NCBI GenBank assembly: GCA_002269645.1
Contig: NIVC01001325.1
Location: 186,001-250,000, forward strand
From: Macrostomum lignano
Lineage: Eukaryota
DNA length: 64,000 bases
Direction: 5' to 3'
The notes beneath the pieces were generated by a model. It had not been told where the DNA came from, searched no databases, and saw only the letters and a list, made by a program, of their open reading frames with translations. The number at the start of each line of letters is the position of its first letter. Positions within the stretch are counted from its first letter, which is position 1. Positions 1,950 through 26,490 of the stretch are shown here, in pieces. The position numbers were made by a program, and so were the translations under genes.

Positions 1950-2682
1950 ACACAAGTCTGTTGCAAAAGCTGAAGACGACCCGCAGGAACGCAGCCACTT
2001 CGGTCGGGTACGCGGTCCACAAAGATTTCACGCGGACACAACTCCGCCTGGTTTGCGGGGCAGCTGAACAGGTGCGTAACCTTATTGGGTTCCAACAGCA
2101 GTCTGGAGTCCGGAGTCGATCCGTGCCGCCGCCTAGCTGGATTGTCGACTCTGGCTTGAAAATCATGGAGCAGTTGGCATAAGCTGGATCAGCGCAACGT
2201 ACCTGCGCCTGCAGGATGCACAGATGGATCTCAGGCCGCGGTCGCCAAATGACGCAGTTAATTGTGGGGCAGGCCGTCCAAAGTGTCCTAAAAATCCTAA
2301 GCACGATCCCAGCAGCCGCGTCTCAAAGATGTCCCTGGCCGGAATCAGAATCCAGTTCACGATGAAGCGCACCGCTCGTGAAAATGAAGGTCTTCAAGAG
2401 CCTGTGCAGAAGCAGTGAAAGGTGGTTGTTGTAGATGAAACCAGTGTAGGACACCTAACTGGTTCGGAGCTTGAACTGGAGCGACAGAGAGGAGATTGCG
2501 CTGGAGATTGAGCAGCCGGCCGTACTTCACAGTGGGGATCAGCTTTGGAAGTTATAGCAATGCAGCCGTTGATACAGCGGATGGCCGGCGTTCTGGGACC
2601 GTCTGCAGTTGAGTCCAGAAGGTCTGGGAGATGAAGGGCCCCAGACAGACACGGCGTAGTCTAGCAGACTTCTGTGAAGCGC
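1950..2682 (-). mobile_element. Decayed non-LTR retrotransposon (LINE, I/Nimb-like), 3' part: RT thumb and C-terminal CCHC region
   Basis: Minus strand reads RSLLDYAVSVWGP...LQTV and HLFSCPAN...LWTAYPTEVAAFL, with frameshifts. Confidence 0.7.
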
Positions 2683-3341
2683 TGAAGTGACACATTTTGG
2701 CTCTTATAGAAAGTTCCCATCCAGATGGAATGTATTTTAACCAACGAATGCGCTCCAACTAGCAAAAGCTGAGGACACGACCCCAACCTCAACCAATGAA
2801 AAACAGTTATGTACCATCCAATGCGATCAAGACTGAAAAGTACTATAAAAGCTCATGTTAACCAACCAAGAAGCTCGCGCCTCCCTGGCCTTTTCTCTCT
2901 TCCGCCTCTCTTTCGCCCTTCTCCTATCTTACCTCCTTTGACTACTTTTGATTGACACTGCCAGGGTCTCGGCCCAAACACTAAAACTGATAAATTGACT
3001 CACTAAAACTAAAACAACAACCAACCCACGTTCCACAATAGACTGAACCTTCGGTTCCCCCGAACACTTAGAAACCCCTTGGAACTCGAACAAAACGAGC
3101 TTCTTATTTGGAATTCCATCTTAGACCTTATATTTTGTAAGATAACATCTCGAGATTGTGACCATCAAATACAACGGTCTGTAAGTTAACATCAAGTGTT
3201 TGCATCATCAGGAAAAGTCAGTTGAATCCGCCGCCTCAGTTATTTGGCTCTCACATTGATATTTGAAGTAGAACAAGAGCCATAGAAGTGAGAGACCAGA
3301 AGAAGAACAATAAAACCTACATATTATTTTAAAATATTTCA
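2683..3341 (+). repeat. 5' LTR (659 bp)
   Basis: Starts TGAAG, ends TTTCA. CCAAT motifs ~2792 and ~2817, TATAAA ~2844, AATAAA ~3309. About 7 substitutions and one 3-bp indel versus the 3' LTR by eye. Confidence 0.95.
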
Positions 3342-3342
3342 C

Positions 3343-3356
3343 TGGTTCCCTGACCG
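3343..3356 (+). promoter_or_regulatory. Primer-binding site complementary to tRNA-Glu 3' end
   Basis: TGGTTCCCTGACCG lies 1 nt after the LTR. Its reverse complement CGGTCAGGGAACCA matches the 3' end of metazoan tRNA-Glu(CUC) plus CCA as recalled. Confidence 0.85.
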
Positions 3357-5143
3357 TACTTTTCCTCCGATGCTTTTCACCACAATAGCCGCCATGCCCT
3401 ACATGGGGTAGACAGCTATAGGCGTGGCTGATGGGTGCGAACGGTTGGACTGGCTTCTCCCCCCCCCCTCCCCTTTGAGCATTCGAGACTGTCAATAATA
3501 CATATTCGAAGAATGAATCGTAAATCACGAGCTCTTAAATTCAAATTCAGAATTCAAATCGGTTCTAAGTTTTGTCCAGTGCACTGAGACCTGATTCACG
3601 TCATTTCAAATTCAAAGGAGCCATGCATGAAAGTCAATACATTATCGTTCCGGAACAATTACAATTTCAATTCAATTCAAGAAACGTCGTCGAACATCTG
3701 ATATCGAGTTCTTATTCTCAAGCCTCAGAGCTTCAATGCAGAAATTCAATTCAGTTATTCTGATCCTCAATTGTTCAAGCTTCAAAGCTTCGATTTTTCT
3801 AAGACCGCGGCATCATCAATTGTTCAAGTTTATTTAATGTTGGACGCCTCTTTATTCACTGCTTTTCCACAGAATAGCAACGTTTGCTCTGGACTTCCTC
3901 ATACAAGTATGAGACTCTCCAAAGCGACTGCGCCATTCGTTTTTCCTCCTCGGTTTTTCCCAGCAGTGTGTGGCCACATCCAGAAAACTGGCTTATCTCA
4001 GATTCTCTGCCCAGTTAAGCGCCCGAAAGAAAGAACGAAAACGCAAAAAACCTGACGAGCTATTCAAACGAAGTCACTACAGCAAATATTAATCAAACTC
4101 TGGAGCCACCAATTTCTTGCTGTCAGAAAACTTCTTCGCTTATCAGACAGGCTGCTTGCCTGACCATTCATTATCTTCCTTGATTAAAGCCCACGATTCG
4201 CTGGTTGCCGAGCCTGCGTGCTCCATCCGGAAAACCTTTTTGCTTATTTTTGCAGACCGCTTGTCTAGCCTTCCATCATTTTTTCTTGATTAAAGCCAAA
4301 AAACTTACTGTTTGCAGACTTCATGAGCCCCATCTATCAAATCCTTATCCACCCAAGTTTTTTTTTTCGGATTGTTGATTCTGGCGGTTGCCCTTTATAG
4401 ATCATTTTGATGTAGAGATTAGGATGCTTTGGAATCTTCTTGTGTGTTTAATCAACTTCAGTGCCCTCCAACAAATCCTTATCTTAAACAAGCTGCCCAA
4501 GTCAGACTTCGCGCGCATACTTAATCTCCCAGAGAGACCTCTTTTCTTGATTAGAACCATCACTCAACTTCATCTCCCACGAGAAAATCTTTTTCTCAAT
4601 CAAACTGTCCAGGCCAGCCTTATCATGCCACTTCATCACCGGCCCAGCGATGTTTTTTCCGCAATCTCTGACAACCGACTTCCCCTGGGATCTGTCCCTA
4701 GCCCCCTCCCGTTTCGCATGATGGATTAAGACCAAAATAACCTCAACTTTTCTTCCATCTCCCTATTGCCAGTGGCCAAAGCCGTTTGATACCCCACAGA
4801 GCTTGTATTCTAGTTATTTTGCCAGTTATTCTGTTCTCGGCTTTACAAAAAACTACATTAACGCTATCTATTACCTACCTTATTAAAATAGAACTTTGCC
4901 CATATTTTCCACCTTTTCTTAAAAGCAGCCTGCGTTGATTTAAATAGTTAAACAGGTTGGTTTGGTTGTGTATTTTGCAAGCATCTACACACAGAGAGGG
5001 TGGTCGCGGCACCAACAGTATGTAAATATATGTACACTAATAAGTAATTCTATATCTACAAAAAACTATACCAAAAATTACAAAAACATGAAAATTAAAA
5101 TTAAAGATACATAAACCTAAAGTCAGTTATTCCCCAAATTAAA

Positions 5144-5425
5144 TTACACCAGAATAAAGTTACCCCAGCGTCGTCCCGCTACAATCTCCTCCTCGACTTG
5201 CCGGAGTTCCTGCCACCATTCGAGGCGGCGCTCACACCACTTGCGGACGGGTGTGACTAGCCGCCTGAACGCTGACAGGAGCCGTGAACCCCGCCGAGCA
5301 CCCCGCTTCGTGTCGCGGGGCCAGCCGTCCTCCAGCAGCAATGCGAGTTCCCACAACCGCCGACAGAGCCACCACCATTGATCCGCCGTCTTCCTCGTCC
5401 TTTCGAGTTGGGCTTCCATAGCCAT
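5144..5425 (-). CDS. Antisense accessory ORF (93 aa, Trp/Arg-rich, unknown)
   Basis: ATG-initiated GC-rich island in an AT-rich leader, divergent from ORF-A. Confidence 0.4.
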   Translation of the reverse strand: MAMEAQLERTRKTADQWWWLCRRLWELALLLEDGWPRDTKRGARRGSRLLSAFRRLVTPVRKWCERRLEWWQELRQVEEEIVAGRRWGNFILV

Positions 5426-5520
5426 AATGGGTTGTCGAGCAGTCGCGGTTCGGGAATGGTTGAATTGACAGAGTCGCGTAGGAGTAGCAAACCTTATCCG
5501 TTCCCCTTCAGTTTAACCAA

Positions 5521-5659
5521 TATATGCGCCCCGCCTCCCAGGCATAGCTTGGAATTCCCCCAACCAACCAATGAGGACGCCGCAAACTCTGTTCCCAACT
5601 CCCTTCAGAATTTGCCATCAACAGCACTATTCTGCTAGCACTTTTTGCAATACTATAAA
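5521..5659. promoter_or_regulatory. Candidate internal (bidirectional) Pol II promoter
   Basis: GC box GCCCCGCCTCC 5528-5538, CCAAT 5568-5572, TACTATAAA 5651-5659 (same 9-mer as the LTR TATA). Confidence 0.45.
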
Positions 5660-5799
5660 TCGACAGGATCCCGCACTTTTGGGTTAATCGCCTCTCCAGT
5701 ACCACCGAAACTGACTGCAAGATCGACCTTTCGCATATACAGCCTCTACCGACTCAGCAAACACCGTAAATACTCTCAATTGTGTATTCTTACTTCAAT

Positions 5800-6677
5800 A
5801 TGGCCGGATTTCAGCATATCCATGCCCTCATCAAGGCCCTCACCGCTTCTGATGATGTCCCGCTCTTTGACTGTATGTGTGAAATGTACTATTGCCAACA
5901 TCGCCGCAATTTCATTTATTACCACCCCTCCTATCTTTCGCCCTTCCCGTTTCCTCGCACTGTTAAGCCTGCTATTCCAGATTCCCTACATCATGATCTC
6001 TTCAATTGTAACGGACGCTTCGATCTGGTAGCCGACTTCGCCTTTACCATTGCCGACTCCTACCTTTCCCGGATCCACGACCACTGCCAATGTTCTATTC
6101 CGGGACAGATAGACAATATTCTGTTCCACCTCGAGGGCCTCCATACCCCACCCCTGCGAGGAACCTTTAAGTCTGCCATCGTCGAGCTAGCCATCCACCG
6201 CCAGGAGTTCGAGGTGCTCTTCCGCACCCTGCGTTGTGTCAATTTCCACACCGCTAATCCTCTCAACTACGAATATCTCCACCGAATGTACCGTGACAAA
6301 ATCGATGGCATGGAATGCGAACGTTATGATCAACTGCTCCAGAGCTTTGTTCCCCCCCGTTTCCGACTCACCCTCGAGCATGTTTAACCTTGCCTCACAC
6401 CAAACTCCGCCACCACTTCTGGTCGACCTGGACGCGCCATCGCGGCAGTTCTAGAGGTCAGGCCATTGAAGCTCACTTCCTCACCCTCCCTCGGTTCCAC
6501 CGGGAACACATAGTTGGCCATCCCGAGTTCACCGACGACCCCTGTTTTGAAGTTAGCGACTCTCCTTGCCCCACACTCGAGGACACATCACTTGTGCCGA
6601 AGAAAACGGTTCACCACCGCGACTACCGCTGGCAGGTCCTACGCTTGGATTGCCTCCGCATACGGTGGTCGCCTTAA
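5800..6677 (+). CDS. Accessory ORF-A of the LTR element (~290 aa, Cys/His-rich, unknown), one -1 frameshift ~6375
   Basis: ORF 5782-6387 (first ATG 5800) abuts ORF 6390-6677 in the -1 frame. Globular-looking composition and upstream TATA box. Confidence 0.6.
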
Positions 6678-7649
6678 TTACCTTATTCCCTCCCCCTAAG
6701 CCGCAATTTCTATGGCCTCAGCACCAACCCCCCTCGGGCCCTGTAAATATACTATACTCTCTCATTGTCTTTTGAGCACAGTTTCATTTCCAACTCACTT
6801 TCTGTTACCTTCTCAACTGTATTGTGTAAACACTATTTTGAAAATGATCCTTTGATCGACAAAAATTATAAAATTCAAAACCTCAAAAAGCACGTCTCCA
6901 TTTATTTTTCTTCGCTTTATCTATGCTAGACTATTCACATAGTGTTTTCGTAGCCTGCGACAAACTCAAAATGATCATTAGATTGCAAAAAAAACAATAA
7001 AACCAGGAAAACACAAAAAACAATACAATTGTTTATAGTTCATTGCGTATAATCCGTAGTGCTCTTATCATGTTAAATTTACAAAATGATCAGTCCGATC
7101 AATAAAAATTATAAAATTTCAAAAATTAAAAATAGAAAATTTACAAAACTACCGGTACAAAAACAATACTCTACGTTTGCTTAAATTATGAAATTAACCC
7201 CCTAGCTGAAACTCGTCAGAAAATTCAAAATTCAAATGCGAAATTCAAAAGCCAGAACAAATTCTCAGAAGAAAAAACTGCCGACTTCAAGAAAAAGAAA
7301 ACTGCCGATTTCAATGATACAAATTCGATTTTATTGGCCACCACTGATGTCCGTCTAGTCCAACATTCAGGAGCTCTTTTATCAGTTTATCAGTTTCGAT
7401 AAAAGTTTCAGAACCGATTAAAAAGGCAGTTCAATTCAAAATTACTTCGATTTTCAAAGCTCGTTGCAGATCACAGTTCAAAAAATCACACAGTCTCTCT
7501 TTTTCTCCCTTCCCCAGCCAGTCCGCCAACCGCAACCCTGAAAGCCATTGCCGTTTGCTCACTTTGAACTTGACACTCTCTCTTTATTTTGCTATCAGTT
7601 ACATTTCTGTGATATCGTTCCCCCGAAATTATTGATCGTATTCTTGTTG

Positions 7650-9000
7650 ATGACCTCACCTGTCCGAGATTTACTTTCCGGACCAGTATTCCAAAGCTCA
7701 AATCTTAACAGACCTCCTCAACAAAATTTAGAAATTTCTGACCGTCAAGTAGGCGAACAGCCTCCACGAAATAGTTCACCAGTTCCTAATCCGTTTGTAC
7801 CAGATAACGTTGAGCTTAATAACCCTCTTGCGGATCATTTTGAACACAACCGTGCACACTCGCCAGAACCCAGTTCCATTCTAACAGACGTGGACGAAAC
7901 AGTTCAACAAGTCCCAAACGCTATTGCTGAAGAATCTACTCTAGACATGGCTGATCAGGAAGCCGCTCCCCATGTTGATGCTGCAGCCACAAATGCTGTC
8001 CGCGAACTCACTGATGTTATGAATCGCAGTCTACAATTGCAATCGAATCATCCCGTCTCAGCTACTGCTCTTGCTAAAATTCGTCAATCCCTGAAAGGAA
8101 TCGACCAAATGCATGACTTCCGTTCCTTCACTGAAGAGTTCGACTTGATCACACGCTCCTTTGGACTATCGGAGAACGCAAAGATTCGGCTCTTCCCGCG
8201 ACTACTGAATGACCTTCTTAAACTCGAATACAGTCGCCTTTCTGCCGTGGTCCAAGCCTCTTATCCAGCCACCATTGAGGCACTATCTCAACGCCTTTGG
8301 GAAGTAACCATTGGTTCGGCTCTAACGCTGCATAATGCAACAACCCGGAAGCAACAGTACGGCGAACCGTTCCTGTCCTATTTCACCGACATTCGTCGAA
8401 AGCTCCGGTCAGCTATGCCGGAAATACCGGAAGAATTTCCGGAAGATGCCGGTCCGGAAACACCACCCGCGAACCAAGCTGTCATCGACCAGCGAAACCG
8501 AGACTTTCTCGCTACCCTGATGGCTACGACTATCAACAATGCTCTACCCTACATCAAACGAGAACTCTTGAAGCAAAATATCACCACGGAAAGTACGCTA
8601 ATCAACAAGGCCATCCGCGTGAACAAATCCGCGACTCCACCATGGACTCTGATGGCACTGACTTGAAGGCTCTGACTGAGCGCCTAACAACCCTAGAGAA
8701 AACAACGAAGGAAGCCAATCAACAGGTAGTTGCTCTCTGCAAACACAAACCAAGCCACTCACTGCTAATGTGCAACAAAAGCCGACTTGTTATCATTGCG
8801 GTCGACCTGGACATTATGCCGCCGACTGTCGTCGAAGGAATGACGAACAGCCTCGTCCCTTCCGACCTAACTCTGACGATCGAAGAAACGCAGCTCACTA
8901 CGGCTCGGACGCCCGCGAAATCGCTACCAGCAGGCGCCGCCACGGTTGACCTGTAACTATTGCCGGAAACCAGGACACTCTATTAACCAGTGCCGACTAC
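7650..9000 (+). CDS. gag: Gag (capsid + two CCHC zinc knuckles), interrupted by three -1 frameshifts (~8618, ~8745, ~8935)
   Basis: ATG 7650. Gag-like helical CA (FRSFTEEFDLI...QQYGEPFLSYF). Knuckle CYHCGRPGHYAADC at ~8788-8829 lies in a frame absent from the ORF track. Second knuckle CNYCRKPGHSINQC at ~8952-8993. Confidence 0.88.
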
Positions 9001-9500
9001 GAGCCCAACGTACACAAGGCTACGGTCCACCGGCGACACAACAATCACGATTCCCACCTCGTCAAGACTACAGAAATCGGCCTCAGCAACGCTATCCGCC
9101 TCGATACAACGACACCAACAATCAACGACAAGCTCTGAGATTCGCGCAACAACAATATCCTCCAATACGCGCCATCACTGCTCAGGATCCTGAAACGTCC
9201 CACCCAGGATGGAATCAACAGCCGCAGATTGGATGGACGACTCACGACGCTCCCGAGTCTGCCCAACTGATGCACATTGCTACAGTTGATGAACGCCCAC
9301 CGACTTTTGGAAACGAAATTCGCTACTCTGGAGACGCTAAGCAGCTGAAATCTTTACTCAAAAAACCGACTACTGCCGCTGCGACTATCAACTCTATTCG
9401 CCTTTGTACGGTTGAAAGAGTGACTAACGCCTACACTCCACCGAACAACAACAACAACCGCGAGAATACCGTGAAAGCTTCCGTTGGAATTCGCCAATCA

Positions 9501-12260
9501 CTACTGGCACTTTTTCTCCTTTGCCTAGTAACTTCACTCTTCTCACTAGCCAACGCTACTCCGGTAACGACGTCAACTCCACCATCGATCGAAAGACAAT
9601 CTCAAGAGGGCTTCATTGACACGCCAATGGTCTGTCCGTACAACCAGATCCCACGAATCTTTACGATACCACACGAAATCCGTTGTGAACAGCTCAAACA
9701 CAAAACCACACCGGCACTTCCGTTAAAACTAGAACTCTACAAAACTAACGTCGAAACCAGCTCCCTGGTCATGACTGTCTGTTTTCGCGAGAAAATCACT
9801 ATTAGATGTGATACTGCGGTGGTAAGAACCTGGACATCCGCCCTAGTAGAGTTAGAGCCACAACCAGTCACCAAAGCTGATTGTGAAAATTGGGCGCGAA
9901 CAAAGCTATCGCCTGATGGATCATTAGTGCTAAAGACTGCGTCAACTCAGTCTATCCAACGCCTGCAATCGACATTCAACACGCAAAATGCTGTGCGTTG
10001 CACTCCTGGTTCCCATTCAGAACAAATAGTAACAACGGTGATCACCGGAATCCCAGCCTACTCAACAGCAGATCAAAAAATGGAATCTTTTTCCTTCCCA
10101 ATGGACAACTGCAAACTCGCAGACAAATTTTGTACAATTAAAACAACTGCACAAGAAATGCGAGCTTTCAACCTACCTTTGCCGATACTAACATCTCCCT
10201 GGGATCCTTTGGAAACTGAAGCAATCTACCAAATTGACGTGAAAGAACCAAGACACCTGAATCTCATTTGGACACCTCCACCGCTCGCTGATTGTCCTTT
10301 AAAACCATTTCGTACTCTTGAAGGCAACTTAAACTCCGGCTTGTTCTTAACTAATGACCAAAAATTGGGACTAACCTTCAACCCAGTGCCGTCGACTCAC
10401 ACTCTCACCTGCACTGGCGTCCGTAAGACATTGTACCTTTCAACGCAAGGTCTCTACGTAGACATCCTTGACAACAAAGAAGCAGACTTTCTCGCCACCT
10501 TACGAAGCCCATTAGAGGAAGCCACTCCAAAACCTCAAATTAGCAAAGAAACCACTTCTTCGAGACAAAAACGTCGTTCACCACCAGCCATACTACCAAC
10601 GCCACCAACTATATTACCAGTTCAGCAATCGACAACTCAACATCCTTCCACTACGACAACACAGTCACGACAACTCCTACCGCCGCAACCTTTACGACAA
10701 GAACGACCTGATCATCCACCGACGTCAAGTACCTCTACAACAATGACGCCAACAACTACGATACTAACTACTACAAAATCAACACCAACAACTACAATTT
10801 TGACAACAACAACTCCACCGACTACAACAACACCACCGACTACAACGAAAACACCACCGACTACAACAACACCACCGACTACAACGACAACACTACCGAC
10901 TACAACGACAACACTACCGACTACGACAACACCACTGACTAGAACGACAACACCACCGACTACAACGACAACACCACTGACTACAACGACAATGCCACTG
11001 ACTACAACGACAACAACACCTACAACAACCGTAACACCGACAACTCCAACAACCACAACTGCTACAACCTCAGCAGCAACAACGACAGCCGACTCAACTA
11101 CAACGACAACGAAAGTGACGACACAACCTCGTGCCACCACCACTCTACTGCCAGCAACCTCAACCTCTAGCAGCACAACCAGTGCACCAGCAAAGTCTAC
11201 CACCTCGACCTTCACGACGAACCTACCAACGACAACAACCAATCCGCAACTGGCTTCTATTTATACGAATCTAGCAGTTCCACATCACGAACCAAAAGGT
11301 AGTCAACCGGACCTCCTGCTACTACCACGCAACAAGCGAAGCACAGACGACAAAACCATCGCAGCCCCTTCAGGCAACTCCACTGCGCAACTCTCATCAA
11401 CGTTCGCATCCGCTGAACTTCTTGCTGGACAACTACAAGGAGCTGCTAGTAAAGCTCGAAAAGACCTTCTCCAAGTGCAGAGACAACTTGCAACTACTCA
11501 ATGCATGATGTACGCAACTAATCTCAAGTACAACCGACAGTTATACTACACACAACCAACGCTCGCTGCTCGACTCTTATTAAATGATCCTTTCTTGCGA
11601 ACTAGATCCATTGCTGGATACCTCTTCGTCTACCAGTGCAAACCTCTACATCAATTCTGCTTTGTCCAACCAAAGTATAAGACGAACCAATGCTTCATGC
11701 GTCCCCCACTGGAATTCCGCCTACAAAATTATACTGTTCTTGGTTTTTGGACACAACGACTCGTATTGTCTCCACAGCTACTCCAGCTCTAATCTCATGC
11801 GACGCCTTCCCATACTACTACCTGCCTAAACAATCGATGCTATTCAAGACCACACTAAATTTTTTGAGATTCGAACCCACAACCGCTAATGTCAGATCCG
11901 ATGAAAATTATCGGTTGTCCGATTCGCAAACTTCCGTCTCCGAAAGCATCTTCAAACCTATGGGAGATATCAATTATACTTCACTTCATAGCCCGATAGC
12001 GGTGACCGACCTAATGCACCAGTTCATGCAAACTCGCGATTTCCTGATTACGGTTTTCAAACTCCCGAATCGAACACGACACAGAACAGCCATGCTGACA
12101 GTGCATTCCTGGACTCAAAATTAGCTCTCCTCAATCTATGGTCTTCGACGATATTCAACTGGGATCGACTAGTCGCAAACTATCAAGAAAAGTTCGTATT
12201 AACAGCAGCTGTAATTGTCTACATTGCCGTTATTATCTTCGTGTGCAATCTTGGCCGACT
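9501..12260 (+). CDS. env: Envelope glycoprotein, class III (herpesvirus gB / rhabdovirus G-like), embedded between gag and pol; frameshifts ~11738 and ~12055
   Basis: Signal peptide LLALFLLCLVTSLFSLANA|T (9501-9557) and Cys-patterned ectodomain. gB-like block GQLQ...QC...PTLAARLLL...R..AG..F..QC...CFMRPPLEF. Furin sites RQKR and RNKR. TM FVLTAAVIVYIAVIIFVC (12193-12246). Confidence 0.8.
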
Positions 12261-15200
12261 ATGCGTTGCCAGCACCATCCGTTACGGCAGAACGCACACT
12301 ATACAAGTGCTGCGGCAACAACGAACTCCAACTCGAGTAGAATCACAAAACGACTACTCCCAACAACAACAACTGATGCCACCGAGACAAGCGCCAACAC
12401 CTTCAGCACCCATCGAAACGATTGAACTTCGTGCCACCCTTCCGCCACCACGGAGACCACCACCAGAACCGAAAGTTCCAAAATGGCCAGCAAACTACTC
12501 ATACGCCTTTGTTTTAAAGCACCTAACAACAGCAACAATGATCAACCTGTGGTGCCGCAAAGCACCGCATACTCGACACAGATGCACCGCCCTCATTGAC
12601 AGCGGCGCCTCGATCTCCTGCATCTCTCCGGCATTCGCCAAGAAGCTTCGAGTACCACTACAAGATACCAACATGAACGCCATTTGTGCAGGAGGACAAC
12701 AACTAAACCTCAATAAAAAGGCTACTTTTGATCTCGAAATCGATGGACGAAACCACAAGATATCAGCCTTTGTGCTAGATACTCCCGACGCTGACTATGA
12801 CTTGCTTCTAGGAGTGGAAACCTTCAAATCACTGGAATACCACTACAATTCGACTACTCAAAAGCGACAGCTAAGCTCGGCAATGAGCAATTTGCGATGC
12901 TCAACTCAATTCAACAGTTGAAAGAAACCTCTGCAGTGATGCAAAAGAAACTAGAGTTACCACCACAGACAACGCATCAAGTTACGTTGAAACTTTCTTC
13001 TCGACATGAGCCAACGATTCCTGTTCTATTCGTCCCTAAGGACCACACGATCCGAAAACACCAGTTGATGATACCAACTTGCCTTGTTTCTGTCAACCCG
13101 GACGGACAAACTATCAACGTAGAAGTCACCAACCCGTCGCTGACAACACAAACCTTGCATCCTCAACAAGTCATTGGAAATCTGGCCAACATGTCTGACT
13201 ACAACATCGTGCGCCCAGCAGCTCAAATCAACAGTCTACGTACGCTGCAACAAGAAGCACCTACGACTGACATGATTCGTACTCAACTCAAACAAGCCAA
13301 CCAGCACCTCTCAGCCGAGCAGAGTGAACAATTGGTCACTCTGATGAACAAGTACCGTGACGTCTTGGCACTATTGCCAACTGATATGGGTTGCTCTACC
13401 CAATACACGGCTCACCTGCATCTGTACCCACACTCTGAGCCAGTCACGTCCAGACCGTATCCAATCGCTCATGGATTACAAGAACGATTTGACGAACTTA
13501 TCGAAAACTTCCGTCAAAAAGGAATTATCAGTCCGAGTGAATCTGAATACTCGAGTCCATGTCTTCTCGTGGAAAAGAAGACGCTCGACGCTCAAGGTCG
13601 TCGACAGCTAAGACTCGTGACGGATTACCGAAAACTGAACAAGCTAATTCGTGCTCCTAGCATCCGACCTCCGAAGATTCCGGATTTGCTACATCGATTG
13701 AAGAACGCTAAACTGTACACACTCTGTGACCTAGCAGATGCTTTCTACCAAGTTCGAATCGATCCAGAAAGCACAAAATACACTGCGTTCATTGCACCGA
13801 ACGGCCTACTTTGGGAATTCAATCGACTACCTCAAGGACTCAAATCCAGTCCTAGCTTAATGTGCCGTCTTGTAGCATTGTTAACAGCTGACTCTCCAAA
13901 TCAGATTGCCTACTTGGATGACGTCATGCTCATCGCCGAAGACTTCACCGGCATGCTCAAAGAAGTTGAGCGCTTCTTCCAAAAGTTACGACATCATGGA
14001 TTGCGAATTTCACTCCGAAAATGCATCTTTGCTAAAACAGAGGTACAATATGTCTTGGATTTGTGGTTTCTGCTCAAGGCATTAGACCAGCTCCCAGCCT
14101 TATCGAAAAAATCAAGACCTTTCCTGTGCCTCAAACGGTTAAACAACTACAATCTTTCCTTGGACTTGCAAATTTCTACAGAACGCACATTGCTGGCTAC
14201 TCACGAGTAGTACAACCACTTCTGAGTATTATCAAAAATACTTCGAAGCCTAACAAATTCGTCTGGACGAACGCTGCCCAAACAGCCTTTGAAAAACTGA
14301 AACAACTTTTCTCTACGGACATACTACTGGTTCATCCAAATCCGCGAAAACCGTACTTCCTGCACACTGACGCCTCGGATACCGCCATTGGAGCAGTACT
14401 CTCACAGCTAGATGACAACAACCATCAACGCCCGGTTGCCTACATCTCTAAGACGTTAAGCTCAACTGAACAACGCTATCCACCGATTGAACGCGAAGCA
14501 TACGCCATCTATTGGGCAATAAAGAAGCTACACGTGTTCCTCTACGCTTCTTACCAACAGTTCCACGTCTTCACTGATCACCAGCCACTCAAGAGCCTAT
14601 TCAGCGACAAGCAGCCAATTTCAAAACGACTTCAGAAGTGGATTCTAGCGATACAAGATTACAACTTCACCCTTAACTACGTGAAGGGCAAATCAAATGT
14701 AGTAGCAGACTGCCTTTCACGCATCCCCAAAGTCTGTCAGATACAATCGCTGTCAACATTCAACGGACTGCAGGCTGCTATTGATCAAGATCCACTATTG
14801 TCTACAATCAAAGCGCTTCTATCGGAACAGTCACCCACACACGAGCTGTCCAAGAAAGATCAACAATATGTTCGCCGACACCTGGCACGTTATTTCCTGG
14901 ACGGAAACACCCTGTACTTTGAAGATGACGAAGGACGAAGCCGCTTCGTGATACGAACACGCTATCGTGAAGCTCTTTTGACAAGCAACCACTCGACAGC
15001 CCTTGGTGGTCATCTAGGTCACCAAAAGACAGCAGACAAAATCAGTCACTTCTATTACTGGCCTACACTACGACAAGATGTCTACAATTTCGTTAACAAC
15101 TGCAAAGTCTGCCACAAAGCGAAAACAGCACCTCGACTGCGACCAATGCACAAAGCCGTAAAATTCAACGAGGTTTTCTCTCATTTGGCTATTGACCTTG

Positions 15201-16197
15201 TAGGTCCACTGCCACCAGCTTCACACGGCCGCGACGTCTACAAGTACATACTCACGGCCCAATGCGGCGTTAGCAAATTCCTGTTCACTATCCCGCTAAC
15301 TGAGACAACTTCTGCAACTATCTGCAACAACCTCTTCAACCGTGTGTTCGCTTTCGCAGGACTACCAGCACACATCATCTCAGACAATGGACCCCAATTC
15401 ATCTCGCAAGAATTTCGAGAGTTTATGGGTGCCCTTGGAATACACCTGATCTACACCTCGGTGTACCAACCATCCAGCAACTTCGTCGAACGCGCTCACA
15501 AGACACTGAAGCAAACTCTTACGGCCTTCGTCCATGACAAACCAGATCTCTGGATTGACTTCCTACCTGCGGTGACACTAGCAATCAATACCGCCGCCCA
15601 CTCAACGATGAACGAATCACCATTCTACTTGTTCTTCGCTCGAGACTTCCTGCCACCCAACGCACGGATCATGGAACACCAGACAACTGCATCATGGACG
15701 TTATTAAACCAGTCAATTTGACCTGTTCAGCTATTTTGCTTGCCAGAGAAGTCGCCAAGGAACTTCTGCACAACTCAGCTGAACAGCGCGCTGAAAACTC
15801 TGATAAGAAGACCAACAGCCGCTACATACGCCCAGGTGCTCGATGCTATTTGGATATCTCAGCAACGAAGGAGACAAAATTCTCCAATCCTTATCGTGGC
15901 CCAATGCGTCTACTAGCATGGCTCTCCGATCAGAACGCACTAATTTTTTACGTCAACCGGCCAAGCGAACGACCAATCGTGGTACATGCCTCCAAGCTGA
16001 AACCATGGCCTGGAGATGGACTCAGCGCTGGACCTAGTCACCTACCTGAGTTTACAACTGATGACATTCAGGTCCACCACAACCATCGGCCGCCATTGAG
16101 CAAGTCCATCGCGCTGCAAACCACGTCCACTGATGAGCCACCAGTCCAGCCACAGACGCATGGCTACAACCTAAGATCGAAGAACAAGAAGTTGTGA
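12261..16197 (+). CDS. pol: Pol: aspartic protease, RT, RNase H, integrase; frameshifts ~12840, ~14052, ~15690
   Basis: PR LIDSGASISC (D at 12598). RT LVTDYRKLN, DLADAFYQ, LPQGL, YLDD (13911). RH TDASDTAIGAVL, EREAYAI, TDHQPL. IN H-x6-H...C-x2-C, AIDLVGP, SDNGPQF, VER. Confidence 0.95.
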
Positions 16198-16506
16198 ATG
16201 ATCAAAAATCTTCTAAATTTCTTTTCTCCTTTCTTTTCCTTAACTGACAATATTGCTTTCTCTTCCTTTCTTTCTCTTCTTCTTTTCTTTCCTTCTTTTC
16301 TAACAATTTTGCTCTCTCTCCCTGCATTGCGACACTTTACGTGACTATATTGACGAACTGACACAAATGAACTTTTATTTTCTGTTTTATCAACAAAAAG
16401 CTACAAAAATTTTCTTTCTTTTCCCTCTTTACATTGCAGAGCTCACACGCTAAAACAACATTTTAATTTTGTGTATCTATTGCTTTTCTCCCTTTTCCTT
16501 TCTCTT

Positions 16507-17436
16507 ATGGATCCATTTCCGCAACCAGTGGATATCCGACCACAGTTAAATCATGATCTTATTTGCCTCGCAACCGTTGTTGCTTGGTTCACTGAAGCAA
16601 TATTTTATTCTGAAACTATTGGTGAATCCCAACGGCTACGCATGGCCTCCGCTTTCTTCTCTCGTTTTTATGTTATCCGCCATCATCGCTTTTATCCTAA
16701 GATGCTCCGCGTCCTGCGAATTAGTCTATTTGGTGTGCTGCGTCGTACTCACTCACGACCACGTATACAGAACTTTTCTCCCACTATGACTGGCGTTCTA
16801 CGCCGCAGCTTCGTACCAATTATACATTTTCTTTTCTCTCCTAATATGTCTATCGACGATTTCTTTCAACTCTCTGCTTCTACTCTCCCTCAATCATGCC
16901 TGCGCTTTAACCAAGACACTTGGCCTTTGTTGCTTTCCTCTCTGCGCTACCCATGGCAACAATTCCGCCATGATGCTGCTAATCTTTCGGCGCAAAAGTT
17001 AACATCTACGCTCCAAAATTATTTAACCTCCTTCGATTATCTCGCCCCTTATGTTTATCAAATTTTTGCTCCGTTTTTTCCCCGTCCTACTAAGAGCGCT
17101 ATCATACGCACGCTAAATCGTCTGTATCCGCACAATTTTTTCTTCACCCACGCTGTTTTCATTCTCTCAACGCGTTCAAGAAGCTTTGCTTTTATAATTA
17201 TCGATTTTTATTCTCGCTCGGTAGTTGCCCATACTATCTTCCCTTTCTCTTGTCCTCCGCTTCGTCGATATTTATACAATATTCACCGTATACGAAATGC
17301 TCATGTTGGCTACCCTAACACCTTGCCAGAGTATGCCGCTCTTCATACCTTCTCCATCAAGCGTATTAAGCATTCTCCTCCTTCTGATCTTAATATTAAT
17401 TTTGCTCGACTGGCATACGTTTTTTATATGATTTGA
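16507..17436 (+). CDS. Accessory ORF-B (309 aa); C-terminal half resembles a degenerate integrase core
   Basis: Uninterrupted ORF with ATG 16507 downstream of a strong acceptor (AG at 16438-16439). Contains FIIIDFYSRSVVAHTI...GYP...LHTFSIKRIKHSP. Confidence 0.7.
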   Translation: MDPFPQPVDIRPQLNHDLICLATVVAWFTEAIFYSETIGESQRLRMASAFFSRFYVIRHHRFYPKMLRVLRISLFGVLRRTHSRPRIQNFSPTMTGVLRRSFVPIIHFLFSPNMSIDDFFQLSASTLPQSCLRFNQDTWPLLLSSLRYPWQQFRHDAANLSAQKLTSTLQNYLTSFDYLAPYVYQIFAPFFPRPTKSAIIRTLNRLYPHNFFFTHAVFILSTRSRSFAFIIIDFYSRSVVAHTIFPFSCPPLRRYLYNIHRIRNAHVGYPNTLPEYAALHTFSIKRIKHSPPSDLNINFARLAYVFYMI

Positions 17437-17647
17437 TTCACCATCATCGCTCACTATTTTAATCCGCTTTTTCTCCAATATTGAGCGTTGAAACGCCACA
17501 CATTTTTTCCCAAAAAATACTCACAAATATTTTCCGTTTCTCTGCCTATTACTCCTCCGTTATTTTGCGCTAACCTTTGTAAAGCCTATGCTATTTTTTT
17601 CTCTGTTATTCTGTCAACTGCTTTTTCGAACGTCATCACGCACTAAC

Positions 17648-17900
17648 CTGCCCAACCCTGCTCAACCCTGCTCAACCCTGCTCAACCCTGACCTACACGA
17701 CTGCTGCTCTGTGCCTGGTCTTTGCCAATTGCTGCCCCTGGCGCTGCTGTAACCAACTTCAAACAACAACCTTGCTCTACACAACTGCCGCTCTATGCCT
17801 GGTCTCTGCCTACTGCTGTCTCTGGCGCTGCCTCAGCCAAAGTCGAACAACAACTTTGCTCTACCCAGCTGCCGCTCTATTTTATGCCTGGTTTTTGCAA
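17648..17900. repeat. Short tandem repeats inside the element: 11-bp CCCTGCTCAA(C) x4, then ~84-bp unit x2.5
   Basis: Directly visible repeated units. Confidence 0.7.
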
Positions 17901-18022
17901 GTCGCTCGACCTCTGGTGCTGCTTCCACCTAAGTCAACCAACTAGCACTAAGGCATATGGCTCAACAACGTCTGTTCTTTCATGACTGCTCAGTCTGCTC
18001 ATCTGACAACTTCGGCATCACA

Positions 18023-18373
18023 TCATGTGGTGGCCCTGAAAAAGGCCGTTGTAACGTTCAAAGGACGGCAGAGCCGGCAGAGCAGCCAGGGCGCTAACAC
18101 GGCCGCTTCTACCGACTCCACCGAAGGCGCTTCCGCGTCGGCCGCGGCGGCCGGTGTTTCTGATGGGCCCGCGCGACAGCAACAGCGACGGCAACAACGA
18201 TAGCACTGTTGGCAGACCGAGCACTGGCCCAACAGTGACAGTAACACTAGTGCCCCCAGCACCACCAGGACCACGATAGTGCAAGTCCAGCGGACGTCAG
18301 CTTTATCACAATGCTCCTGCGACTGTCGTGCTAGATCTCCTAGCAGAAAGCGCAAGTTCTTCATGGTACTCAT
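18023..18373 (-). CDS. Antisense accessory ORF: small single-pass membrane protein with Cys/Arg-rich juxtamembrane segment (116 aa)
   Basis: MSTMKN...WTC TIVVLVVLGALVLLSLLG QCSVCQQCYRCCRRCCCR. Minus-strand TATATAA at ~18463-18469. Confidence 0.55.
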   Translation of the reverse strand: MSTMKNLRFLLGDLARQSQEHCDKADVRWTCTIVVLVVLGALVLLSLLGQCSVCQQCYRCCRRCCCRAGPSETPAAAADAEAPSVESVEAAVLAPWLLCRLCRPLNVTTAFFRATT

Positions 18374-19296
18374 GATGCTAATTAGAGTGGGAATTAATTT
18401 GACCAAAAACACTTTCGGTTAAAAAAATCACCTAACTCTCCTCGTTCTGTTTTAGTTTGGTGTTATATACCCCTTTTGGGCCTTTTCATATTACCAATTC
18501 CAGAACCAGAATCGGTTCGGAATTCCAAGAAAAACAGCAGTATAACTATTAAACTCTGTTAATATTTGACTGCCTTAACAACCTAAATTAGCACAATTTT
18601 TCACTTTCTTCTTGGCGATTGTCATTCAATAATAAAAACTGTATAGCACGTATCTCCCTCTAGTTATGGAGACAAAAAGTTATACTTCACAAATTGGTTC
18701 TGGTTCTGGAACCAGAGCAAGCAATATGAAAAGGCCCTTTGACTGTACAATTTTTCCTGGAATTTTCACTATTTCATGCTCCCTATTTAAAAGATTTTAA
18801 CCTCATAGCTTGTACATATGATTTATTAACTGCGCGGCTCCTTGCTACAACCACCCCAACTTTCACTGTATAACGATTTTTATTACCTTCCTTCTAACTC
18901 AAACGCGTTTTCATTTTAAGCTTGTGTCGCTAAACCCCCGTTTTGCTCTGTACACCTATTTTATCGATTTTTTTGGTTAACCCTCGCTACGTTTTATTCC
19001 ATCCTTGCTTAACTAGTTTAGCTTCGCCTAACTAAAGGCCCTCTGCGCTATCCCTTCTTTTGCTATTTAGACTGATGTTGTACTTTAACCTATGTTACCT
19101 TGCTTAAATTGGTTCCCTTTTACTCAAACATTTTTGCTAACATTATTCACTGCGCACTATTTTTTTCTGCAACAACTTTTCTCGTTTAATACAATGCGTT
19201 ATCTTTTTCTGCAATTTTATCAATTTTAGCCCCCTGCTATACTTTTTCTGTTGTTATGCGCTCGGAGGGCCTCGCTTCCCCAAAAAATAGAGCGAA

Positions 19297-19952
19297 TTAA
19301 GTGACACATTTTGGCTCTAGAAACTTCCCATCCAGATTGAATGTATTTTAACCAACGAATGCGCTCCAACTAGCAAAAGCTGAGGACACGACCCCAACCT
19401 CAACCAATGAAAAACAGTTATGTACCATCCAATGCGATCAAGACTGAAAAGTACTATAAAAGCTCATGTTAACCAACCAAGAAGCTCGCGCCTCCCTGGC
19501 CTTTTCTCTCTTCCGCCTCTCTTTTGCCCTTCTCCTATCTTACCTCCTTTGACTACTTTTGATTGACACTGCCAGGGTCTCGGCCCAAACACTAAAACTG
19601 ATAAATTGACTCACTAAAACTAAAACAACAACCAACCCACGTTCCACAATAGACTGAACCTTCGGTTCCCCCGAACACTTAGAAACCCCTTTGAACTCGA
19701 ACAAAACGAGCTTCTTATTTGGAATTCCATCTTAGACCTTATATTTTGTAAGATAACATCTCGAGATTGTGACCATCAAATACAACGGTCTGTAAGTTAC
19801 CATCAAGTGTTTGCATCATCAGGAAAAGTCAGTTGAATCCGCCGCCTCAGTTATTTGGCTCTCACATTGATATTTGAAGTAGAACAAGAGCCATAGAAGT
19901 GAGAGACCAGAAGAAGAACAATAAAACCCACATATTATTTTAAAATATTTCA
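19297..19952 (+). repeat. 3' LTR (656 bp)
   Basis: Near-identical copy of 2683-3341 (starts TTAAG, one mismatch). Preceded by purine-rich AAAAAATAGAGCGAA (PPT, ~19282-19296). Confidence 0.95.
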
Positions 19953-20700
19953 GCGCCTCATGTAAGTGGTGCCGGCCAGGTAGCGCAGAATGCTTGTTCT
20001 CTTCTGGACTTTGTCCGCTAGGGTGAAGACGTCTCAAAAAAGACAGCTAAATTGGGGTCGAAAATGATCCTCATAATTTTCAGGTACAGCGCTTGCGGAA
20101 GTGGCGCACCGTTTGATATAAACACGCAGTTAACGCGGGTTAGAAAGGTGGCCGTAAATTTTAAAGTTGAGAAAACTGCATCCACTCCTACGAGGCCGAC
20201 CCTCCCCGTGGCAGTAAGCATGCAGGGTGGGTGGGACGCTGACGCTTCTTCCCGGGCCGCCAAAGCGAACCGTCCCTCCCGGCAGCATGACCCCGCGGGC
20301 AAGGGTGAGCACGTTACTGAGGGCGGAGCCGACCGACGCCCAACGCGCAGCGCCAGACGGCGTGGCCTGTTCCAGCGAGCAGCTGCAGTGGTCCGCACCG
20401 CCAAAATCAGTTAGCTGAAGCGAAAGGTCGCCGGGACGCTCAGGCGCACCAGTTCGTCCAGGGACGGTGAGGACGTCCCAGCTAACTGGGCCCAACCCCT
20501 TGGGGCAGGGCTGACTGGAGACGATCCGCCTGCCAAGACGGCTGGCTGTTCCAGGGCATTGGGCCACTCCGAGGTGGAAGACCCTGTCGCCGGTGGGCGA
20601 AGGGCGGCGAATGTCGCCTACTCCCTTCCGACTGGTCAGGGGTCGATCCTCTGTTGAAGGCACTCACGAACGACCGCGTTTTTCTAAACTTTCCCAGCTG
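19953..20700 (-). mobile_element. Continuation of the same decayed LINE on the other side of the LTR insertion
   Basis: Minus strand reads NGAPLP...IIFDPNL...LADKVQKRTSILRYLAGTT. It joins EALHRSLLDY across the GCGC target site. Confidence 0.6.
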
Positions 20701-22128
20701 TAGTAAAGAGACCTGATCGCTCGGTCACAGAGAGCTCTGAAGAGACTCTAGAGCTCATGCTCAGCAGTTTTTCCCTAAATCCCCGACCTAGCAGGGCCCG
20801 CCTGACAACACCGTGAGAAGGCATGGCCTAGCAAAGCCTTTTATCACCAAAGACCACATTACTATAGAGCGGCAAGGTCCTTTAACTTGCTCAAGGCGCC
20901 TGGGCCCGATGGCATCTACCCAGCGTTCTTGCACGTGGCGGTAAAAAACCAACGCTTTTTTATTAAACCTCCTTTGTCGTCTCCTCCGAGCTTTGTGGAA
21001 CTGGGAAATGTAACATTTGCATGGAGAGAGGCCCGGGTGGTCTTTAATTTATCCCAAGCCTGGGAAGAGCGACTACCAATCGCGTATGGCCTTCAAGCCT
21101 ATCTGCAGTCTCCCCTCTTTCTGATTTAAGCTCCTCGAAAGGCTGGTGCTTTGTCGCCTGCTCTCGGTCGAGCTGAAGCGCTTCCCACTCCACAGAACCA
21201 GCACACCTTCCGTGCGGGCAGGTCTACTGAGAGTGCCCTCCGTCATCGTTTACTTGGCGAGGGCCGTTCTTGGCAGCGGCTTTGCCCGTTCGCTTTTCCT
21301 GGACATTGAGGGGCCTTCGAAAATGTCATCTTCGAGGTCTTGGTAGAGCCCTGGAATCCAGGGCCACCCACCCTCACCTTGTCCGGTGGATCATGCTCAT
21401 GATCCGAAACCGCACTGTTGGGGCCCACCTGAACGGCAGCTCAAACGGCGCATGTCCAGAAAGGGATCCTCAGGGCGGGTTACCCCTGTTCTCTAGAACA
21501 ATGTCATGGATGAGTTGCTTTGCAGTGCTCTTCATGACCCTATTCTCAAGGTGGGCTATGCCGATGACGTGGGACCGCATATGTCGACCCTCGATTTCTC
21601 GGTCGACACAACCAGAAATTTGCTGGAGCGTTAGGCAAACCAGATTCAGAAACTACAGCGGTTATATTTACCAACAAACTGCTCTGGACCATGAAGCCCT
21701 CGCCCTCTGCCCTCTATATGGAAAGAGCATTTCTCTGCCGGCGCCCTTCTGCGGCCACCGGGCCCCCATCCCTACCTCGGTGGTCAACTCCCGCGTTAAG
21801 CGCTGGGCTGACTCCGAGCACCTCCGCAGGTGGCACGACACTCGGAATTGCAGGAAATACCATGCTGCCATCCCCTGTTCCCTCCCCCTCCTGCGTAGAG
21901 CCCTCCTCAGGCTCAACCACAGAGACCTCAGGGCTCAGAGCAGTCAGCATGGCCCTCTCCGGGCATGGCTACTTCTCTCACCACCGCTTCCTTCAGGGCC
22001 AGGTACCCGAGGAGCGGTGCCCCTTCTGCCGCTCAGGCAGTGAAAACGCTGAGCACTTTGGCATTGCCCGGTCTTCACCAGAGACCAGGCTCATTCAACT
22101 CGGATCAAACCCGTTAAGTTCTCCCTGA
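20700..22128 (+). mobile_element. Decayed LOA/R1-like non-LTR retrotransposon fragment
   Basis: KAPGPDGIYP, WREARVVF, LLERLV, FLDIEG, PQGG and GYADD remnants. C-terminal GHGYFSHH...CPFC...EHF zinc motif. Many frameshifts. Confidence 0.75.
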
Positions 22129-26192: not shown

Positions 26193-26490
26193 CATACATG
26201 CGCAACCTCCAAAATTCGGTCGGCCGTGCGACTTAGTTTTAACAAAAATGCGACGTAGTTTTTGGCCAAAAATGCGACTTACATGTAAAAAAACCCTAAA
26301 GCAAAATTAACGCAACTTTGGGTAAACGGCAGGAGTAACTATGACTGTTTTATTAAGCCAAAATGCCTCGTCAGCTACTTAGTACTACTACTTGGGTATT
26401 TTTTTAGGTGGACATTTTTGCGACTTCCTTGGTTGGCTGCCAAATCAGTCGGCCGGATCGGCCGACTCGGCCGACTGTTGCGCACGTATG
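26193..26490 (+). mobile_element. MITE copy 1 (298 bp, 14-bp TIR CATACATGCGCAAC)
   Basis: TIRs at both ends, flanked by a 9-bp direct repeat ATTCATTAT. Confidence 0.85.

Follow-up and report, generated by a model that had tools for sequence, protein, structure and literature searches.

An env-carrying Ty3/gypsy element with four putative accessory genes in a macrostomid flatworm

The locus studied here raises the question of what kind of agent a 17-kb gypsy-type element with an env in its coding region and four extra open reading frames (ORFs) may be. It lies in a 64-kb window, that is, the whole stretch of 64,000 nucleotides analysed. We consider it likely that a macrostomid flatworm here carries an env-bearing Ty3/gypsy element (an errantivirus, broadly defined) of the known GAG-ENV-POL kind, whose four accessory genes are real and form a modular set. 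Named protein homologues indicate that the host is probably Macrostomum lignano.

Element boundaries and sibling copies

The element spans positions 2683-19952 (17,270 bp, 17.27 kb). Its terminal and non-coding features are listed below; the target-site duplications and the polypurine tract were read from the sequence.

2679..2682, no strand: 5′ target-site duplication, GCGC
2683..3341, +: 5′ LTR, 659 bp, TG...CA, with CCAAT (2793), TATA (2844) and AATAAA (3309) motifs
3343..3356, +: primer-binding site
17683..17942, no strand: imperfect 84-nt tandem repeat, non-coding on the + strand
19281..19296, +: polypurine-tract-like segment
19297..19952, +: 3′ LTR, 656 bp
19953..19956, no strand: 3′ target-site duplication, GCGC

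The LTR pair is 98.6% identical (one 3-nt indel, and 7 substitutions over an alignment of 656 bases), and the 3′ LTR starts with TT, not TG. These measurements agree with the first-pass annotation, which had described an element of about 17.3 kb with LTRs about 99% identical. The intact target duplication, the 4.3-kb leader (3342-7649) and the 3.1 kb between the end of pol (16197) and the 3′ LTR were likewise as it had described them. The primer-binding site, which we take to correspond to tRNA-Glu, is identical in all four other copies compared, each of them examined at a 5′ LTR flanked by host sequence or at the start of the copy; no tRNA gene was found within the 64-kb window. Two LTRs, a short target duplication, a primer site and a polypurine tract, all features of Ty3/gypsy membership, are present.

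Each of the three single sibling insertions that retain both LTRs carries an identical LTR pair and a 4-bp duplication of its own. Judged by these sequences, the sibling copies show very recent activity, and the earlier view of the family as recently active stands. Two independent 16.9-kb insertions run colinear with the window element over the whole length.

The gag-env-pol polyprotein

The following coding features were identified, the two hydrophobic segments from sequence.

7650..9494, +: gag, capsid-like region with a CCHC knuckle (8949-8996), in three frame pieces in the window copy
9495..9557, +: hydrophobic segment resembling an internal signal peptide, between gag and env
9558..12192, +: ectodomain of env, a class III fusogen like herpes gB (profile against PDB, E 8e-14)
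10563..11342, +: mucin-like block, 260 aa, 67% Thr/Ser/Pro, between RQKR and RNKR furin-like sites
12193..12255, +: env transmembrane (TM) anchor, followed by the protease in frame
12577..12828, +: aspartic protease (PR; PF13975, E 4e-8)
13371..14051, +: reverse transcriptase (RT; YLDD; PF00078, E 8e-22)
14264..14662, +: RNase H (RH; PF17917, E 7e-36)
14960..16197, +: integrase (IN), zinc domain, core and C-terminal part (PF17921, PF00665)

The Pfam domain order is PR-RT-RH-IN, as in Ty3/gypsy, and the Pfam search found no BEL/Pao-specific domain in the element. The best PDB matches of the RT were 4ol8 (E 3e-25) and the Ty3-G Gag-Pol 7q5b (E 2e-24), and Ty3-type entries outranked caulimovirus-type, foamy, MLV and HIV entries in this ranking by similarity to PDB. 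The assignment to the gypsy type is therefore upheld. The gag is 49% identical to the gag region of a relative, P0001, and its zf-CCHC match in Pfam is weak (E 0.1).

In the window copy, gag-env-pol is split by 7 breaks into eight overlapping frame pieces, and an env within the polyprotein, as first claimed, is thus unreadable from the window alone; it was established from other copies. Frame-changing indels relative to same-site copies occur in all seven break zones, and the assembly is rich in single-base indels; on this comparison the breaks look like assembly indels. As assembled, the window copy lacks the full-length RT and IN in continuous ORFs that PMC13524379 used as its inclusion rule. 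Among the loci spanning each junction, one frame was retained from knuckle to signal in 8/10, signal to env in 9/10, env to TM in 6/9, TM to PR in 5/9, RT to RH in 10/11, and RH to IN in 5/10. One relative of 2852 aa has all domains in a single protein. In distant loci, env runs into the protease in one frame in five of six, the sixth stretch stopping at the TM; no close copy has a whole-polyprotein frame, the longest being 2086 aa. A comparable hydrophobic segment precedes env in loci L027-L032. At the level of predicted proteins, these frames show one polyprotein, Gag-signal-Env-TM-PR-RT-RH-IN, with env between gag and pol.

Foldseek matched env to gB-type proteins (E 4e-10 and 5e-13), from a structure model with a pTM of 0.41 and low TM-scores. 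PF24664 was matched by 7 of 11 env members, the window's own env piece being without a match, and a Nyavirus glycoprotein ranked third in one env structure search. A single-sequence PDB search with env found nothing, the homologue search with the env alignment gave P0001 as its sole match, and that with the env N-half against longer proteins gave none. On profile and model evidence, env is a gB-type class III fusogen, its predicted ectodomain lying between the signal segment and the TM. Among sibling copies its dN/dS is 0.08-0.10, and from this selection it is plausible that the element is potentially infectious. The mucin-like block is disordered in the env model and measures 214-260 aa across 10 sibling loci.

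Accessory ORFs in the leader and after pol

Two extra sense and two antisense ORFs were found, together with one promoter-like segment; we assume that the ORFs are the four reported, without coordinates, by the first-pass annotation.

5144..5425, -: antiC, 93 aa, Trp/Arg-rich, no family; dN/dS 0.05-0.07
5568..5659, +: CCAAT and TATAAA resembling an internal promoter, by motif match only, between the divergent leader ORFs
5800..6387, +: ORF-A, 195 aa here, no family; dN/dS 0.21-0.24
16507..17436, +: ORF-B, 309 aa, no family; dN/dS 0.28-0.50
18023..18373, -: antiD, 116 aa here; dN/dS 0.10-0.15

All four are under purifying selection against sibling copies, by pairwise dN/dS values that are mutually non-independent. 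In non-coding controls the tested frame gave 0.47-1.09, and the best of six frames reached 0.27 on one occasion (P 7.5e-4); compared with close siblings, ORF-B therefore stands out from background only modestly. Against a 72% homologue it had a dN/dS of 0.33 (P 1e-6), and 0 of 1000 shuffles were open. Substitutions in antiC fell at codon position 3 in 17/20 and 18/23 cases, and antiC had 30 matches in the searched genome (G000). The selection test for ORF-A gave P about 1e-12 to 1e-14, and this ORF is about 269 aa long in one sibling copy. Three other frames were rejected as genes: 17583-17945, 10712-11260 (-), which shadows the Thr repeat, and 4424-4729, whose behaviour is that of non-coding DNA.

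No outside homologue was detectable for any of the four, and an exact look-up of accessory proteins in a protein collection found 0 of 10. An alignment search with ORF-A found no homologue at E 0.1 among 2321 candidates; its best ESM Atlas match (0.86) is a lead only, and its AlphaFold pLDDT is 40. ORF-B found nothing in the ESM Atlas. Because the searches run gave no Pfam family, homologue or usable fold for antiC, ORF-A and ORF-B, roles given to these three are guesses. A leader ORF of a family with 582-bp LTRs was rejected as an antiC homologue, its likeness covering only 18 residues (E 0.011 pairwise; 0.58 elsewhere) and its diverged copies being broken.

The antiD protein has an N-terminus of about 30 aa, one hydrophobic span and a Cys/Arg-rich cluster, as seen in a hydropathy window only. 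It is 86-92 aa long in sibling copies, and a TATA-like motif lies about 96 nt upstream. An antisense ORF with a TM and Cys/basic residues follows pol in 4 of 6 related families (2 of 6 show none), in the same place across families whose env is 27-47% alike, and 0 of 300 shuffles passed the ORF filter in each of three regions. The ORFs of the distant families share the layout at only 25-28% identity, that of a fourth family having a Cys pair only and a longer N-terminus. The proteins of two distant members finish with ETAV and ETEV, similar to PDZ-binding tails of viroporin-like or junction-binding proteins. By its layout, antiD is similar to cell-fusion proteins of the FAST/sORF2 type or to viroporins. 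At the L023 junction, splicing of antiD to antiC was considered and rejected, as the junction falls in short shared sequence without GT-AG.

The check for copies without the accessory regions had a divided outcome. Of 8 sibling copies, 3 lack the leader module, including one whose LTRs are identical, and the 3′ module after pol is present in all eight. Selection against siblings and the two colinear insertions support the proposal that the four ORFs are real genes, and not secondary insertions or an assembly chimera, as far as codon patterns can tell.

Described systems, competing readings and significance

The first-pass annotation had called the element giant and matched it to no described family. 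That the layout is undescribed is unsupported: giant flatworm gypsy elements with accessory ORFs and an in-frame env between gag and pol were described by Arkhipova and Yushenova in 2019 (PMC6431247), whose 20-kb bar for "giant" the window element, at 17 kb, does not reach, and GAG-ENV-POL elements with gB-type env in Nematoda, Bryozoa and Platyhelminthes by Chary and Hayashi in 2026 (PMC13524379). With the latter the window element shares Ty3/gypsy pol, gag-env-pol order, gB-type env with signal segment and TM, multiple copies and a flatworm host. It differs from Mlig_errantivirus_2, the only Macrostomum element there, which has 864-bp LTRs, another primer site and about 10.6 kb; a G000 family with an 870-bp LTR has that primer site, and its env is about 29% alike to that of the window element. 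The nematode endogenous retroviruses cited in PMC13524379 also have env ahead of pol, in nematode rather than flatworm hosts. The main text of that paper makes no mention of accessory, antisense, sORF, mucin or polyprotein. For the four accessory ORFs, no published description was found in the literature searched. The nematode elements of Sacco et al. 2022 are said to have one continuous gag-env-pro-pol ORF, a nyamivirus-like env and some extra ORFs, and reportedly form a monophyletic nematode clade by RT. We know of none of these four accessory genes from that work.

The planarian Burro/GYPSM1 (PMC6431247) is likewise a flatworm gypsy element and proposed provirus with in-frame env in one polyprotein and accessory ORFs. 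However, it exceeds 30 kb, its ORF of 4,873-5,140 aa carries BIR, MATH, ankyrin, BCL2 and dUTPase, none of which was found in the window element, and its env matched gypsy Env/F-like proteins and mononegavirus glycoproteins, whereas the window env matched gB. Plant Retand (PMC11963269) shares a lengthy stretch from pol to the 3′ LTR, antisense ORFs and tandem repeats, but has no env polyprotein, and its antisense ORFs carry TRP28, unlike the window element. Rotifer Vesta (PMC5408684) shares small TM/Cys ORFs after pol; in contrast to antiD, the ORF3s of rotifers have lengths of 210-230 aa and are reported under that name, downstream of pol. The sORF2/FAST-like proteins of the MDG1 group (PMC11952523) are, like antiD, small one-pass membrane accessory proteins of gypsy elements with an ectodomain of about 30 aa and a basic patch, sometimes after pol. 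They are sense, mostly myristoylated and from env-less insect elements, whereas antiD is antisense, Cys-rich and beside a selected env. Among the features used for sORF2/FAST, antiD has the length (63-200 aa), one TM, the ectodomain of about 30 aa and the juxtamembrane basic patch (hydropathy window only), and lacks MGxxxS/T and sense orientation.

A chimeric assembly or nested secondary insertions are scarcely credible as the origin of the 17-kb layout: the many single-base indels and the nested or rearranged loci L023, L038 and L042 elsewhere would favour such an origin, but the two colinear 16.9-kb insertions refute it unless those contigs share an error, and the 3′ module is in all eight siblings. 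It is improbable that the accessory ORFs are merely young cargo captured from host or other virus, without a role in the element cycle and with a codon signal predating capture. For the same pairs of copies, dS is 0.74-0.82 for ORF-A and 1.0-1.4 for antiD, far above the 0.10-0.17 of RT, which indicates a separate, older history of these pieces, and the missing leader pairs point the same way. However, all strong matches placeable in G000 fall within elements of this clade, start codons, frame, position and orientation are retained across swapped alleles, and the antiD-like ORF keeps its place in families only 27-47% alike in env.

The chances are about even that the element is purely intracellular, its env serving budding into internal membranes or soma-to-germline passage within one animal, with no infection between animals. 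The element is known here from sequence alone, and PMC13524379 argues for long vertical descent of such elements; the mucin shield and conserved furin-like sites would instead suit an extracellular phase. This reading is compatible with most of the explanation we prefer. That antiD is a true FAST/sORF2-type cell-cell fusogen, providing a second, env-independent route, seems unlikely: MGxxxS/T is in no member of the antiD alignment, the element retains a selected env, and the ETAV and ETEV ends of two distant members look like PDZ-binding tails. All 105 sORF2 candidates are sense (PMC11952523), also against antiD; its 67-92 aa, N-terminus of 22-30 aa, single hydrophobic span and juxtamembrane basic patch nevertheless agree with sORF2/FAST in that paper, and its Cys cluster would fit the palmitoylated FAST proteins mentioned there.

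Under the preferred reading of an env-carrying element with accessory genes, the polyprotein would thread the ER membrane twice, with Gag and Pol cytosolic on either side of a luminal Env, and its cleavage would fall to signal peptidase, furin and the protease of the element; particles would thereby bud with Env at a fixed ratio. By cutting the mucin block at either end, furin may release a glycan shield and prime fusion. Internal promoters probably drive the accessory genes. The most likely place of action for antiD is the membrane, where, palmitoylated, it would assist the exit of particles or their passage from cell to cell; a FAST-like fusogen and a viroporin (or Vpu- or E-like budding or trafficking factor) are equally weighted, tentative candidates, with receptor interference or another role scarcely less likely. 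For antiC, ORF-A and ORF-B, the likeliest roles, as a guess, are to counteract silencing by the host or to regulate expression, and the leader pair (antiC and ORF-A) would be dispensable in cis.

It is conceivable, if decidedly speculative, that a flatworm clade of "complex" errantiviruses combines a mucin-shielded gB-type envelope, a small antisense-encoded fusogen or viroporin of the membrane that deeply diverged families retain, and swappable lineage-specific anti-host gene cassettes, which in sister families would hold a RING-like protein and perhaps a deoxynucleoside kinase. If true, an animal lineage of Metaviridae, active in a laboratory model worm, would parallel by convergence the accessory and antisense genes of lentiviruses and deltaretroviruses. 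The gene order, already published, will not surprise specialists; the accessory set may. In surveys of invertebrate env elements, annotation was confined to gag, pol and env, and the survey of small fusogens (PMC11952523) targeted arthropod ORFs with myristoylation. That a Cys-rich membrane protein, antisense and under selection, keeps its place beside a working-looking envelope across such distant families points to an undescribed step of the life cycle. RNAi and transgenesis are routine in Macrostomum lignano. With a family very recently active in what is probably this species, the movement of env-carrying elements between soma, stem cells and germline would become testable outside insects.

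Structure of the element and its copies

Self-comparison revealed direct repeats, taken as LTRs, that are 98.6% identical (7 substitutions in 656 aligned bases, plus one 3-nt indel), with GCGC at both element ends as the target duplication. A primer-site-like sequence lies directly 3′ of the 5′ LTR; the 3′ LTR is preceded by a purine-rich run. The leader is 4.3 kb long and the stretch from pol to the 3′ LTR 3.1 kb. These features agree with the first-pass annotation, which had claimed a real element. Pfam hits to protease, RT, RNase H, and integrase follow the gypsy order, a weak CCHC knuckle lies further 5′, and the closest solved structures to the RT are Ty3-type. The coding region in the window consists of eight overlapping frames rather than one.

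Main features of the element in the window
2683-3341, 5′ LTR
5144-5425 (-), antiC, leader module
5800-6387 (+), ORF-A, leader module
16507-17436 (+), ORF-B, 3′ module
18023-18373 (-), antiD, 3′ module
19297-19952, 3′ LTR

The element sits inside another repeat (2400-2682 and 19957-22128), whose downstream frames (19957-22128) look like a decayed non-LTR retrotransposon and resemble part of a chimeric protein, P0004. Elsewhere in the window, long inverted repeats at 26193-27109 (arms of ~300 nt, 94–100%, around 319 nt) are MITE-like, and 33000-64000 is dense in minisatellites with periods of 8–46 nt, several long open frames there being repeat shadows.

In the LTR search of the genome, 40 of 284 candidates were scored, and all 40 matched at 89–100%. 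For the ORF-A region, 24 of 30 rows matched beyond 59 bases; for the 3′ region, 18 of 43 rows carried matches of at least about 1 kb. The copies compared were 10 units in 20 fetched stretches. Two of these units, on contigs C1861 and C3269, have the flanks of the window (97–100%) and hence are the same insertion, represented three times. The C1861 version is without most of env through RT. Over 6.2 kb the window and C3269 align with no mismatch and 10 gap openings; over the next 6.9 kb there are 10 mismatches and 8 gap openings. At all seven break zones (7/7), a frame-changing indel distinguishes the window from the same-site copies covering the zone, so the frame breaks are most likely assembly errors. 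The LTR differences recur in C1861 (8/655), and the divergence of ~1% is therefore probably genuine. A 256-nt segment (18479-18735) is present in the window and the same-site copies and is unmatched in the sibling subfamily.

The sister subfamily is ~90% alike to that of the window in the LTR. Its three single insertions with both LTRs all showed 0 differences in 653 LTR bases, each with its own 4-bp duplication; in a tandem pair, one unit had 22 LTR differences and the other 0. From these sequences the sister subfamily is judged younger than the window's insertion. Fetched stretches L017-L020 (contig C172) hold two tandem elements with a common middle LTR, both without the leader module.

Polyprotein and env

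Same-frame counts, in which overlapping stretches enter some copies twice and same-site copies are included, were 8/10 fetched loci for knuckle-signal, 9/10 for signal-env, 8/11 and 8/11 within env, 6/9 for env-TM, 5/9 for TM-protease, 9/9 and 7/9 for protease-RT, 10/11 for RT-RH, 5/10 for RH-IN, and 9/10 within IN. One capsid marker was printed as 0/11 because it straddles one of the window's own frame breaks; manual reading of the comparison output placed the capsid region and the knuckle in a common frame in 7/11 loci. The longest open frame among close copies is 2086 aa, and distant families have open frames of 2,500–2,866 aa. A single 2852-aa M. lignano database protein, P0001, contains gag, env, protease, RT, RNase H, and integrase; its RT is 79% identical to that of the window, and an ORF in the searched genome is identical at 431/431 residues to a member of its cluster, which makes M. 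lignano very probably the host.

One hydrophobic segment (9495-9557) lies immediately 5′ of the env ectodomain, and a second (12193-12255) closes it and continues into protease. PF24664 (Monjiviricetes fusion protein) was matched by 7 of the 11 aligned env members; the window's own env piece gave no match to it. The env profile matches herpesvirus gB (E 8e-14). The env model (pLDDT 59.6 overall, mostly 70–90 outside the repeat, pTM 0.41) returned gB together with rhabdo-, nyami-, and chu-like glycoproteins in a structure search, a likeness of the predicted fold with low TM-scores. The env dN/dS is 0.08–0.10. Between RQKR and RNKR lies a 260-aa block, 67% Thr/Ser/Pro, which is present in 10 sibling loci (214–260 aa) and has a similar counterpart in two nearer families; at five loci further removed, one basic site stands in its place. 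RQKR and RNKR may be furin sites, and the block would then be a shed glycan shield. The deposited record of an env homologue (P0002, P0013) assigns the protein to a bacterial metagenome bin (Kangiellaceae); this is probably animal DNA within the bin.

Accessory ORFs

In pairwise codon tests against siblings, whose comparisons are mutually non-independent, dN/dS was 0.07 for antiC and 0.21–0.24 for ORF-A (two comparisons each), and 0.10–0.15 for antiD and 0.28–0.50 for ORF-B (three each). The minimum fell in the own frame among six for all four. The accessory genes of the first-pass annotation are judged real. Four non-coding controls gave 0.47–1.09 in the tested frame, and one went down to 0.27 off-frame (P 7.5e-4). 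ORF-B, whose sibling values lie near this range, is accordingly the weakest candidate for selection of the four. Against a 72% homologue it gave 0.33 (P 1e-6), and its frame was open in 0/1000 shuffles. The dS of ORF-A (0.74–0.82) and antiD (1.0–1.4) is higher than that of RT (0.10–0.17), which suggests that accessory alleles were swapped by recombination.

That other copies carry the accessory regions proved right for the 3′ module, present in 8/8 sibling units, and only partly so for the leader module, present in 5/8 and missing from 3/8, one of the latter with identical LTRs. By motif match only, the interval separating the divergent leader ORFs contains CCAAT and TATA, and a TATA occurs upstream of antiD. 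No outside homologue of antiC, ORF-A, or ORF-B was found in homologue, Pfam, or ESM Atlas searches. At L023:8228-8558, antiD runs straight into the 3′ portion of antiC, the junction being a short sequence common to both, within a rearranged locus adjoining the integrase of another family, and the tail of the window's antiD also resembles antiC. Together these hint that the two antisense genes were formerly adjacent.

The post-pol region was inspected in six families. In the window's family, the 582-bp-LTR family (84 aa, the same ORF at 9 places), and the 555-bp-LTR family (67 aa), an ORF antisense to the element encodes a short N-terminus, a single hydrophobic stretch, and a cluster of Cys and Arg. 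A layout filter, devised after these ORFs had been seen, passed no others over 296,824 bases and passed 0/300 shuffles for each of the three regions. The two shortest members end in ETAV and ETEV, presumably class I PDZ-binding tails; sibling antiD ends in ESVV or EAAV, and the window's antiD extends beyond that point. In a fourth family (27% env likeness) the ORF fits this layout less closely (86 aa, with a Cys pair and an Arg run). In the post-pol region of the 870-bp-LTR family, whose primer site is that listed for Mlig_errantivirus_2, there is no antisense TM+Cys ORF; its place is taken by a pair of sense ORFs, the 210-aa one being RING-like (Sina_RING, E 2.5e-4, short of the cut-off). In the sixth family the region continues into other DNA.

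Post-pol ORFs of other families
L036:1784-2416, - (element sense), 870-bp-LTR family, 210 aa, two RING-like Cys clusters
L036:2487-2897, - (element sense), 870-bp-LTR family, second ORF, 136 aa
L042:1761-2441 (-); L038:1005-2792, 3325-3999 (+), 40%-env family, post-integrase ORFs
L039:1996-2778 (-), 27%-env family, its own 260-aa sense ORF, no confident family assignment

In the 40%-env family, a deoxynucleoside kinase ORF (PF01712, E 2.5e-21) lies 3′ of integrase in the element's sense, followed by ORFs resembling Endonuclease VII and DNA polymerase B; either the kinase would have been captured, or the element would abut a Polinton-like one here. Outside an LTR, L021:1174-1980 (+) is a DUF3504/tyrosine-recombinase-like ORF (E 5e-13), which we take to be Crypton-like.

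Published elements and novelty of the family

The layout, presented by the first-pass annotation as the main surprise, is already on record in PMC13524379 and PMC6431247. The former reports GAG-ENV-POL with a gB-type env from Nematoda, Bryozoa, and Platyhelminthes, lists nine flatworm elements, one of them from M. lignano with an LTR and primer site unlike those of the window element, and tabulates 93 POL and 51 ENV predictions for this species; the window's family may be among the unlisted ones. The latter names Burro as the first instance of an env set in frame between gag and pol, and also mentions accessory ORFs. The described sORF2 are all sense, palmitoylated variants lying outside that survey (PMC11952523), and small TM ORFs and antisense ORFs after pol have precedents (PMC5408684, PMC11963269). 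No description of the accessory set was found in the literature searched, which did not include subscription journals, Repbase, GyDB, or preprint supplements.

Judged by sequence, the element is a new family with four predicted orphan genes under selection. The features left as new include the mucin block with its two putative cuts, and the predicted antisense membrane protein common to much of the clade. The gene order gag-env-pol itself is not new.
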